Part shown: in pieces, positions 49,387 to 51,605 of the stretch
Numbering within the stretch: the first letter of the stretch is position 1
How the letters are laid out: the number at the start of each line of letters is the position of its first letter
Virus record (IMG/VR): IMGVR_UViG_640753059_000001
From: a virus
Taxonomy: Duplodnaviria > Caudoviricetes
Strand: one strand, 5' to 3'
Length of the DNA stretch: 64,000 bases
Notes under the pieces: generated by a model
Told to the model about the DNA's origin: nothing
Databases searched by the model: none
The model's input: only the letters and a program-made list of their open reading frames with translations
Translations under genes and position numbers: made by a program

Positions 49387-50043
49387 ATGGCAGGGCGTAA
49401 GCGTAAGGCAGGGCGGCGGACGGCGGACGGTCGGTTAGCGAAGAAGCCGCGCCCGCAGCGCGTCAGGGACATCACCGACGTGGCAACCAGCCAGCCGCAC
49501 CGCAGCTGGCTCAAGGAAGGCCAGCGCCGCGATCAGCGCGCCGAGAGCACCCTTGGCAGGATGTTCCTCGCCGACCTGATCACGGAGCCCGAGTGCTGGG
49601 CGGGTGAGCGGCTCCGCTCCATCATCCGGGAATTCCATGTCGTGATCGCCGCACCGATCACAGCGTCAACGGCGGCAATCATGGTCGCCGAGGGGATGGA
49701 GATCCCGGCCGAGGCCGACCACCTGGCGGCGGAGCGCCCGGAAACCGAGGAAGAGAAACGGGATCGGGTTCTCGCGCAGCACGCTGGCGCCATGGCGGTC
49801 CTCGATCGGCTCGAATGGGGGCGGCAAATCACCAGTGAACTGGACGCCCTGCTTATGCGGGACGCCGAGCCCGAGCACCTCCGCCTGGTGAAGGCGGGCC
49901 TGCACGCCCTCGCCGCCTTCTGGCGCATGGCCGAGCCTCCGGAAAACCCCAACGATCGCGAGGTCAAGGTGAAGGGGGTCCGCTATGGCGAGGAGGCCGA
50001 ATGGCCTCACGAAGAGAAGGTGGTGAGCATCGTCTATAAGTAA
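49387..50043 (+). CDS. Putative late-gene activator/antiterminator (Q position)
   Basis: Last early gene before terminase; basic N-terminus, 'LGRM.L...IT....AG', 'GL..LA.FW'. Confidence 0.55.
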   Translation: MAGRKRKAGRRTADGRLAKKPRPQRVRDITDVATSQPHRSWLKEGQRRDQRAESTLGRMFLADLITEPECWAGERLRSIIREFHVVIAAPITASTAAIMVAEGMEIPAEADHLAAERPETEEEKRDRVLAQHAGAMAVLDRLEWGRQITSELDALLMRDAEPEHLRLVKAGLHALAAFWRMAEPPENPNDREVKVKGVRYGEEAEWPHEEKVVSIVYK

Positions 50044-50135
50044 AATTTCGGCTCCCTGCGCCATAGGCGCAAATCAGCCATGGTGTGCCCGAAATGCAGG
50101 GTGAAGTGTTGCGCCCTGATTTGGCATAGCAGTTT

Positions 50136-50950
50136 ACGGCTCCGGCCCCTTCGGGCAAGTCGTTCCAAGTCCTACCGGCCGGATACGTCGGACTTGGTAG
50201 AAGCGGGGATCGGTCACAAACGCGTAGCTTGCCGGGGGCGAACAGAAGCCCCGTAGAAATTCCCGGCACCCATTCGCGCTTCGGCGCGCAACCAGGTGCG
50301 GACCGACCAGCAGGCCTCCGGGCGCAAAGGCGGCGAGCACGGCGCTAAAGGCAAGCATCTGGCCCGCGCCGGCTGAGAGGCCGGCAACTGTGATCCCTGA
50401 GCGAAAGCTCGTGTTGAAGCAAGGCGCGCGATAGTGCCGAGTGGAGCGGGTGAGTAGGTGGCGCGGCACGGCCCCGCGATGGACCGCCGGGAAGCTACGG
50501 CGACAGGGTGAGGACGGCGCAAGCCGGTGGCCCAGGCCTTTGCCTCTCCCAAGTTTCGCGCTTCGGCGCGCACGAGTTCGACGCGGCAGCTTGTTGCTGT
50601 GAAGGTTGGGGCGGCCCGGCCGTCCCGCGTCGATCAGCTTCGAGAGGGCAAGCCAGCTCGCGCCTTGTGTGCCCCGGTAGGAAACGGCTTCCGTTCGAAG
50701 GGGAAAGCAACGATTGCCCAGCGGTGCGTAGGCGTTCGGCAAGCCGGCGCTTTGGCATTCGCTCTAGGGACCGCACAACGCGGGGATGGCGCCCCGCCCG
50801 CAGGGCGGCTGGGGTCGCGCCCGGCCTCTCACGAAAGCAACTCTCCGCCACGGCAGGCTTGAAGTCCGTGGCACGTCCACTGCCGCGGGGCTAGCCTCCG
50901 GGGCCCGTGTTCATCATCCGCCCGCCCGGTTCTGCCGAGGCGGGTTTTTC
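50136..50950 (+). ncRNA. Candidate large structured ncRNA or ncRNA array
   Basis: No credible ORF; dense stems with GNRA and UUCG tetraloops, long-range closing helices, 3' terminator. Confidence 0.7.
50921..50950 (+). terminator. Intrinsic terminator upstream of terS
   Basis: CCCGCC-CGGT-tct-GCCG-A-GGCGGG-TTTTT. Confidence 0.8.
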
Positions 50951-50987
50951 ATTGGGCGAGTGAGCCCTTATTGAGGCGGGCTCAGGC

Positions 50988-51605
50988 GTGACCGAGAAGC
51001 GAAAGACGGATTGGGAGGCGATCGAGCGCGAATACCGCGCGGGCCAGCATTCCATCCGCGAAATTGCCAAGAAACACGGCGTCAGCGATACCGCCATTCG
51101 CAAGGAGGCCAAGGCCAAGGGCTGGGAACGGGCCCTTGCCGATCAGGTCCGCAAGGCAGTTCGCGAGAAGCTGGTTCGCAGTGATGGTTCGCAGTCAGGT
51201 TCGCACCCTCAACGTGCGAACGACCGGGAGATCATCGAAGGGGCTTCGCTCCTCGGTTTCGAGGTCGTCCAGTCGCACCGGCGCGATATCTCGCAGCTCA
51301 CCGCCATCTCCAACATCCTCGCCACGAGGCTCGCAGCGGTCCTGAACAGCGACCCTGTGGAAGGCCGTTGCCTTGGTGACAAGGAAAGCCCCGGCGACCT
51401 TCTGGAGAAGCTGACGCGGGTTCGTGCGCGGCTGATCCCCCTGGAGCGGCAGGCCTACAACCTTGACGCCGAGGAGCGCGACCCCAGCGACCCTGATAGC
51501 CATGACGGTTCCGCAATCGACCTTCTCGCTCGCCGCCTCGATCGCATCGCTTCCCGTAGCGGAGAGGGCCCGGGTTCTGGCGGGACTGACGAAGAAGCAG
51601 GCTGA
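50988..51605 (+). CDS. terS: Terminase small subunit
   Basis: 'DWEAIEREYRAG..SIREIAKKHGVSDTAIRK.A...GW.R'. Confidence 0.8.
   Translation: MTEKRKTDWEAIEREYRAGQHSIREIAKKHGVSDTAIRKEAKAKGWERALADQVRKAVREKLVRSDGSQSGSHPQRANDREIIEGASLLGFEVVQSHRRDISQLTAISNILATRLAAVLNSDPVEGRCLGDKESPGDLLEKLTRVRARLIPLERQAYNLDAEERDPSDPDSHDGSAIDLLARRLDRIASRSGEGPGSGGTDEEAG

Follow-up and report, generated by a model that had tools for sequence, protein, structure and literature searches.

A conserved hairpin at module junctions of a putative mosaic RNA leader at the head of the packaging operon of an alphaproteobacterial prophage

In the 64,000-nucleotide (nt) stretch of the Caudoviricetes record IMGVR_UViG_640753059_000001 (hereafter the window), a gap of 944 nt (50044–50987) separates the gene of a 218-amino-acid (aa) protein from that of the small terminase subunit (terS). 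The gap holds no convincing open reading frame (ORF) and carries an 18-nt hairpin twice. What does a repeated hairpin do in such a place? A sequence-only reading had proposed a polycistronic RNA array of alternating repeats and domains, in which the repeat is a processing, stabilising or protein-loading signal and the RNAs in between are exchangeable cassettes. The array lies at the head of the packaging operon, because terS and the TerL and portal genes come next, and the gap is probably the plus-strand leader of the prophage packaging operon. From comparison with related loci, we conclude with good confidence that the hairpin is a conserved RNA element found at the junctions of a cassette array.

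The 18-mer TTCGCGCTTCGGCGCGCA has two exact plus-strand copies in the window (H1 and H2; Table 1), and sequence search and folding bear out the earlier description: both copies fold alike as CGCGC-UUCG-GCGCG, at −8.4 kcal/mol. In shuffled versions of the window, matches to the 18-mer with up to three mismatches averaged 0.34, and two or more were obtained in 4 of 100 shuffles; an exact 18-nt repeat within 944 nt is far above chance. The weaker hairpin previously noticed near the 5' end of the region is likewise present and is better read as GCCC-CUUC-GGGC, the stem type of the distant hairpin variants in L314 and L353 (L numbers denote the compared loci). The whole 5.6-Mb genome (G000) contains just four copies of the 15-nt core TTCGCGCTNCGGCGC with a UNCG loop, all of them on the plus strand. 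Two of these copies are those of the window. The other two have a UACG loop and are found 62 kb upstream, within the RNA leader of an adjacent, different prophage (L002), in an equivalent place with early or methylase genes on one side and TerL, portal and capsid genes on the other. A dispersed palindrome of the repetitive extragenic palindromic (REP) type is ruled out by this count of four UNCG-loop copies on one strand in two loci. Other matches to the 15-mer in the genus Xanthobacter fell in coding sequence at the frequency of a reversed control, and the genus census placed the true hairpin in about 9 of 32 genomes, confined to such arrays. The identity of the hairpin as an intrinsic terminator is also ruled out, the U-rich run lying 5' of the stem and not 3'; the sole site reported by a terminator scan (50931–50949) is neither H1 nor H2.

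Twenty hairpin instances were collected from about 16 prophage or viral loci. Pattern scans of genome and metagenome contigs returned almost exclusively chance matches in the coding sequence of G+C-rich genomes, together with two true loci, and a first scan of viral contigs also gave mostly chance matches. Four stem pairs are formed in all 20 instances and a fifth in 7 of them; one pair is flipped from GC to CG in L314 and L353, and the GCCC/GGGC stem recurs in a metagenomic contig. The loops are UUCG, UACG, UCCG, CUCG, GAAA or UCAC, and every variant is predicted to be stable (−7 to −9.6 kcal/mol). The UUC before the stem is invariant or nearly so, a short A/U-rich run (linker of 3–6 nt) stands 5' of it, and the orientation of the hairpin is always that of the tRNA genes and of terS. 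As anticipated from the window, the repeat is conserved in homologous loci, where it stands at junctions between modules and the cargo can be a tRNA instead.

The neighbours of the hairpin differ on its two sides. Within 1–2 nt of its 5' side lie the CCA ends of tRNA-Pro (L006), tRNA-Met (L316) and tRNA-Arg (L353), a YrlA-like RNA (L002), module C (six loci) or module A of the window, the last 43 nt of which form a 7-bp acceptor-like helix (50230–50236/50262–50268) followed by a discriminator C and a CCA (50270–50272) abutting H1. Of the 20 instances, 9 have a CCA at a distance of 10 nt or less on the 5' side of the stem, against a background of 0.10 calculated from the composition of the gap; the binomial P of 7e-5 is overstated because the loci are related. 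On the 3' side stand B, C, module E (L008) and, most often, S1. When L011, L316 and L312 are aligned, the leader and the hairpin–S1 unit are common to all three, and between them lies nothing, a 77-nt tRNA-Met or a module C of about 190 nt, respectively. There is thus a cassette slot immediately before the hairpin, and module C can take the place of a tRNA in it. On these comparisons, the hairpin is a junction piece that accompanies tRNA-type cassettes and C on their 3' side and the scaffold formed by H, S1 and S2 on its 5' side.

The modules themselves recur in other combinations. The A–H1–B segment (50057–50389) is 94–96% identical in genome G009 (L004), whereas H1–B (50273–50387) in genome G021 (L006) is joined straight to S2/D2 (50635–50855), the intervening modules being skipped, so that B there occupies the position of S1, with H before it and S2 after it. 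Module B is common to L004, L006, L007 and L008 at 90–98% identity, positions 50358–50835 are 77% identical in genome G011 (L005), and positions 50554–50586, which cover H2 and the start of S1, are common to many loci. The 198 nt from 50389 to 50586 (C, H2 and the 5' strand of S1) are 96% identical in L002 (G000:C1:4043887–4044084) with unrelated flanks, which indicates a recent exchange between the two resident prophages. Contigs of relatives from four runs (probably DNA) show module boundaries at 50389 and 50587 in addition to variant hairpins. Real tRNAs for Pro, Thr, Gly, Met, Trp, Ser and Arg lie beside the modules in sister arrays (detected in L005, L006, L008, L009, L312, L316 and L353). 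This mosaic homology, together with a slot for alternative cargo, indicates that the intervening RNAs are exchangeable. Directly 5' of module C on an IMG/VR contig (L314:8860–8930) there is also a tRNA-Met(CAU)-like gene that has a non-canonical T-loop and was missed by ARAGORN. BLAST matches to 50333–50384 in L003, L014, L020, L025 and L026 lie inside a conserved host protein gene and were set aside as chance, and L015, L016, L021, L022, L023, L027 and L152 were rejected as relatives of the array, being coding sequence.

By comparison, the modules also appear to fold as RNA. A consensus fold of module C from five relatives (including those found in L005, L312 and L314) comprises 49 pairs, and compensatory changes occur in 7 of these; its GNRA loops interchange among GCAA, GAAA and GCGA, and two of its hairpins are free in sequence and length. 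The S1 helix recurs in 10 loci with different inserts, its loop holding unrelated sequence that ranges from 38 to about 170 nt. The base of the helix (CGAG with UUCG) is kept, including one G–U pair, and its inner stem varies in a compensatory manner (GACGCGG/CCGCGUC in the window, GACGUG/CACGUC in L005, GACGGC/GCCGUC in L316 and AUGACCGG/CCGGUCAU in L353). The S2 helix encloses the D2 core of about 180 nt in the window, L005, L006 and L316, and elsewhere a 12-nt hairpin (L002), about 110 nt (L011) or a whole HNH_3–AP2 endonuclease gene (L312). The D2 core (50648–50824 in the window) also stands alone between ORFs on the megaplasmid of Methylorubrum extorquens AM1 (L153:2990–3160) and on IMG/VR contig L315 (about 870–1000). 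The solitary core on the AM1 megaplasmid follows a gene that appears Mom-like by eye, and the peripheral hairpins of the solitary cores are swapped. In the helices beside the hairpin, the G–U pairs and compensatory changes are compatible with the plus strand only. The claim that the hairpins separate independently closed domains is thus backed by comparison for C, S1 and S2, though single-sequence folding lends it no support, its z-scores for the two strands (−0.19 and +0.42) being uninformative at such G+C content.

Table 1. Features of the leader and its surroundings in the window
Feature	Position	Strand	Remarks
218-aa conserved phage protein, Arg/Lys-rich N-terminus	49387..50043	+	Always directly 5' of the RNA leader
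Leader with motif GCAAATCAG...CGAAATGCAG, then a small hairpin	50044..50135	+	Motif found by eye after the orthologous gene in L004, L352 and L353
Module A, with a weak hairpin at ~50147-50158	50136..50272	+	94-96% identical copy in L004
Hairpin H1, UU-CGCGC-UUCG-GCGCG-CA	50273..50290	+	Stem 50275-79/50284-88
Module B	50291..50389	+	Inner helix ~50296-50300/50355-50359; terminal hairpin 50368-50385
Module C, structured RNA of ~165 nt with GNRA loops and variable hairpins	50390..50552	+	96% identical copy in the neighbouring prophage
U-rich linker GUUU and hairpin H2 (50555-50572)	50553..50572	+	Stem 50557-61/50566-70
S1 long helix, CGAG..UUCGACGCGG with CCGCGUCGA..UUCG	50573..50642	+	38-nt variable insert
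S2 helix around the D2 core (~180-nt conserved motif)	50639..50835	+	D2 core recurs in other loci
3' domain with conserved GGCUUGAAG and hairpins	50836..50919	+	Similar segment after S2 in L011 and L312, by eye
Intrinsic-terminator-like hairpin and T run before terS	50920..50950	+	Stem 50931-50944 and TTTTT; longer stem from ~50920
Small subunit of terminase; TerL and portal genes come next	50988..51605	+	phrog_1206, E 3e-41; TerL and portal by Pfam

The close association of H2 with S1 raises the alternative that the hairpin amounts to no more than the first helix (P0) in a conserved leader RNA, H–S1–S2 with or without D2, which would act in cis on the packaging operon, having for example a put-like antitermination or regulatory role upstream of the terminator at 50920–50950, and that H1 and other extra copies are functionless by-products of the recombination by which foreign modules were inserted. 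The hairpin stands directly before S1 in at least 10 loci, the H–S1 junction is the most conserved stretch of the region, and orthologous loci of two other genera, reached through the 218-aa protein, retain the hairpin followed by an S1-type helix; a terminator ahead of terS would also suit such a leader. However, the hairpin is found without S1 before B (window, L004 and L006), before C (L002), before E (L008) and after C (L314), and it also adjoins tRNAs in L034 and L045. A link to the CCA ends of tRNAs and their mimics would be unexpected for an internal helix, and the extra copies are intact and identical instead of decaying. This explanation is thus considered unlikely.

We instead favour the following scenario, which as a whole is the best explanation available to us, at roughly even confidence. 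The leader would be a mosaic of RNA cassettes with a junction element at which RNase E cuts, the hairpin clamps the new end and cassettes are exchanged. The array would consist of cassette A with its tRNA-like 3' end, cassettes B and C, and the H–S1–S2/D2 scaffold; in sister phages it also holds real tRNAs and the YrlA-like mimic. The junction element would comprise an A/U-rich single-stranded linker ending in UUC and a G+C clamp of 4–5 bp with a very stable tetraloop, the linker being kept single-stranded between a closed cassette and the fast-folding clamp. Host RNase E may cut post-transcriptionally in the U-rich linker, after which the downstream RNA would start with 1–3 unpaired bases and the G+C hairpin as a paired 5' end. 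Such an end may protect the RNA against RNase J and against 5'-end-dependent attack by RNase E, and the clamp may furthermore keep adjacent G+C-rich modules from misfolding together. At the DNA level, the shared hairpin of about 18–33 nt (with or without the start of S1) would provide homology for the exchange of cassettes; the copies would be identical within a phage and different between phages because exchange takes place at this homology. The part of the scenario that concerns specific processing and protection is the more tentative, and we place it somewhat below an even chance. It builds on the fact that, where a tRNA gene encodes its CCA, the transcript has to be cut by an endonuclease just past the CCA before exonucleases can trim it, and that in Proteobacteria RNase E makes this cut. 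The host has genes for RNase E and for an RNase J-like enzyme. According to PMC5222698, RNase E prefers a single-stranded site with a U two nucleotides downstream of the cut. In our collection, UU(U) is present in every hairpin linker.

Several observations weigh against this scenario. The enterobacterial RNase E motif has a purine at position −2, which is found in only about half of the linkers, and the Rfam alignment of L002 pairs the GUUUCG linker with an upstream CGAAAC, so that the linker is perhaps not always single-stranded. The repeat–domain–repeat–domain layout of the sequence-only reading does not hold strictly either: B and C abut at 50389, the most frequent and sharpest breakpoint, without a hairpin, the junction of B and S2 in L006 also lacks one, and H2 doubles as the constant first helix of the H–S1–S2 scaffold. 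Furthermore, the stem is GCGC in 18 of the 20 instances, a conservation that exceeds the need of a plain hairpin and hints at sequence-specific recognition beyond the proposed model. The instances are also few and phylogenetically close, and the statistics overstate their independence.

Within each of three phages the hairpin copies form identical pairs, of the UUCG type with a 5-bp stem in the window, of the UACG type with a 4-bp stem in L002 and as AUUC-GCGC-UUCG-GCGC-A in L008, and the types differ between loci. With about five types in circulation, the chance of three concordant pairs is, by a rough estimate, of the order of 0.01. Identical copies point to duplication of the resident hairpin at the insertion of a cassette or to gene conversion, either of which would be DNA exchange at the hairpin. 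Within the S2 loop of L312, a gene on the minus strand (1901–2455) with an HNH_3 domain (57 bits) and a weak AP2 domain looks like a free-standing homing endonuclease gene inside an RNA-gene array. The clustered regularly interspaced short palindromic repeats (CRISPR) array of L018 (G028:C27, another Xanthobacter genome), type I-E-like with repeat CTGTTCCCCGCATGCGCGGGGATGAACCG, contains a 32-nt spacer that matches module B at 50356–50387 with one mismatch; the protospacer in the window has the correct AAG protospacer-adjacent motif at 50353–50355, and the prophage copy in the genome of L018 itself (L008) is two bases off the spacer. Both the putative homing-endonuclease gene and the spacer against module B fit an actively exchanged locus.

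These observations bring up the possibility that the element acts as DNA, either as a recombination hot-spot or target (an attC-like or homing-endonuclease site) or as part of a pac or cos region near terS. It adjoins terS, homology breakpoints cluster at the hairpin edges (50273, 50290, 50552–55 and 50585–87), and the copies are homogenised within a locus. The HNH gene in the array of L312 has a parallel in bacteriophage T4, in which, according to PMC2330249, segB, a homing endonuclease gene within the tRNA gene cluster, is needed for the preferred inheritance of the tRNA gene region. However, the orientation of the element is constant with respect to the tRNA genes, its loop choices are specific to RNA, its stem has just 4–5 bp, and it is embedded between helices with G–U pairs. 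Its distance to the terminase genes also varies in the neighbouring prophage and in L034/L053. A selected role as DNA is thus very improbable, and exchange of DNA at the element is likely a consequence rather than its selected function.

The 218-aa protein encoded upstream belongs to no Pfam, PHROG or NCBIfam family and has 24 homologous clusters in Xanthobacter, Azorhizobium and metagenomes. Its AlphaFold2 model is all-helical (predicted local distance difference test score 74), with no match in the PDB at an E value below 1, and its basic N-terminus (MAGRKRKAGRR...) is conserved in the family. A BLASTP comparison of this protein with the upstream protein of L008 revealed no similarity. Upstream proteins unrelated by BLASTP (their genes being at about 1490–2100 in L354, at L008:1666–2220 and, with the start at 49387–49480, in the window) were observed to have an Arg/Lys-rich start of the form R-K-R-K-x-G-R and a similar helical layout, and such proteins may constitute one superfamily of late-leader-associated proteins.

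A basic protein gene beside two hairpins recalls the lambda N/boxB nut and HK022 put systems, which likewise have short conserved hairpins in a phage leader before a terminator. The hairpin could accordingly be a boxB-like site that loads the Arg-rich protein encoded at 49387–50043, RNA polymerase then reading through the terminator into terS in the manner of N and nut. In addition to the conserved basic N-terminus, similar to those of the upstream proteins of L008 and L354, and to the terminator downstream, the copies are the same within a phage and different between phages, as nut sites are. However, near-identical hairpins lie 3' of at least four different upstream proteins, namely the 218-aa family, the phrog_15385 family, a phrog_6836 protein and a 291-aa protein without a family, two of them without BLASTP similarity, and the role of loading signal for the 218-aa protein, as put forward in the sequence-only reading, is thus unlikely. 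The differences among hairpins (a flipped-out second loop base and stem length) do not track the protein family, and L006, L008 and L312, whose upstream proteins form one family, have different hairpin types. The interchange of UNCG and GNRA loops (L314) would fit a role as structural clamp more readily than one as a binding site for a specific protein, and the 218-aa protein has no recognisable fold or family. Unlike in nut and put, moreover, the hairpin lies behind tRNA CCA ends, and no boxA-like partner was identified. Antitermination through a boxB-like site is, in our estimate, quite improbable.

The start of the leader also differs among loci. In loci of the 218-aa family, the small hairpin after GCAAATCAG...CGAAATGCAG has a U-rich tail (L352:2160–2270 and L353:2190–2310), and in loci of the phrog_15385 family (L007 and L008) a palindrome, AATTTCCGAAATT, was observed just after the upstream stop codon. 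These leader motifs, GCAAATCAG...CGAAATGCAG and AATTTCCGAAATT, may be a late promoter or start region or a regulator site; no match to the sigma-70 consensus was found in 50044–50135.

Among known systems, the tRNA region of T4 with RNAC and RNAD (PMC3014915) is, like the present array, an ORF-free polycistronic phage locus of tRNAs and stable RNAs that need host RNases. Unlike T4, the window belongs to a temperate alphaproteobacterial phage, its array stands at the head of the packaging operon, and it has no decodable tRNA (ARAGORN and the Rfam tRNA model both found none in the 64 kb). The cassettes here are set apart by a dedicated conserved hairpin, none of which was found described for T4 in a limited literature search; the same search yielded no published description of the junction hairpin. 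The large RNAs GOLLD (RF01998) and ROOL (RF03087) are located near phage tRNA islands, and the array here likewise lies in a prophage, with tRNAs at the same place in sister loci. However, neither covariance model matched the 64-kb window at the gathering score or positions 50000–51000 at E values up to 10, and the present modules are separately exchangeable and do not form a single co-evolving giant fold. No Rfam family was found in the gap at the gathering score or at E values up to 10, none of modules A, B, C, S1 and S2/D2 matches Rfam, and the phage GenBank collection contained no match to the region.

The neighbouring prophage holds a YrlA-like tRNA mimic (L002:1385–1491, G000:C1:4043771–4043877) with a T-arm and D-arm and a long closing stem, which scored 38.1 bits with RF02553 (E 1e-6). 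This is below the gathering score of 69, so the mimic is not counted as a YrlA or Y RNA, and the window had no RF02553 match at E values up to 10. Y RNAs (PMC4201824) are modular RNAs near tRNA-like domains, in phages too, and the mimic is similar in this respect; of the GNCGAAN0-1G motif of the Y RNA 5' strand, only a part is present. Since the genome, which is 100% complete, has no Ro60/Rsr (TROVE) or RtcB gene, the likeness to YrlA is a resemblance and not membership; the TROVE controls were positive in Deinococcus and Bacteroides. A group I intron, prompted by the HNH gene of L312, was rejected, as the homologous window sequence gave no Rfam intron match (L312 itself was not scanned), the adjacent tRNAs are uninterrupted and no gene was found to be split. 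Small G+C hairpins, including REP or intercistronic stabiliser hairpins and 5'-terminal stem–loops, define or protect processed ends and guard RNA from RNase E. Unlike REP elements, the junction hairpin is not dispersed in the genome, lies between non-coding cassettes and is tied to a UUC linker.

The architecture of the array is well supported and offers exact sites for testing in a host that can be cultured. The 18–25-nt junction element marks the ends of cassettes, so that RNAs A, B, C and D2 can be predicted as discrete molecules. The present locus is a small and defined handle on the function of phage tRNA islands and of the large RNAs beside them (GOLLD, ROOL and T4 RNAC/RNAD). Should the hairpin be no more than one helix of a leader RNA, the finding would be an ordinary one; if the element suffices both to release and to stabilise RNAs of any kind, it would account for the shuffling of non-coding cargo by phages and could be put to use in G+C-rich bacteria for the expression of several RNAs from one array. 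A broader reading, to which we assign a low probability, is that the late-operon leader is a plug-and-play island of RNA genes, in which the punctuation element, a U-rich cut site with a clamp hairpin, would release any folded RNA late in infection as a stable molecule, be it a tRNA, a tRNA mimic or a ribonucleoprotein or decoy RNA such as A, B, C and D2 may be. The cargo would then serve as counter-defence or host-takeover tools, such as decoys for tRNA-targeting nucleases, and would be exchanged by recombination at the element, aided in some phages by a homing endonuclease. If this holds, the leader would parallel, with RNA genes, the anti-defence islands that code for proteins, or integron cassettes.

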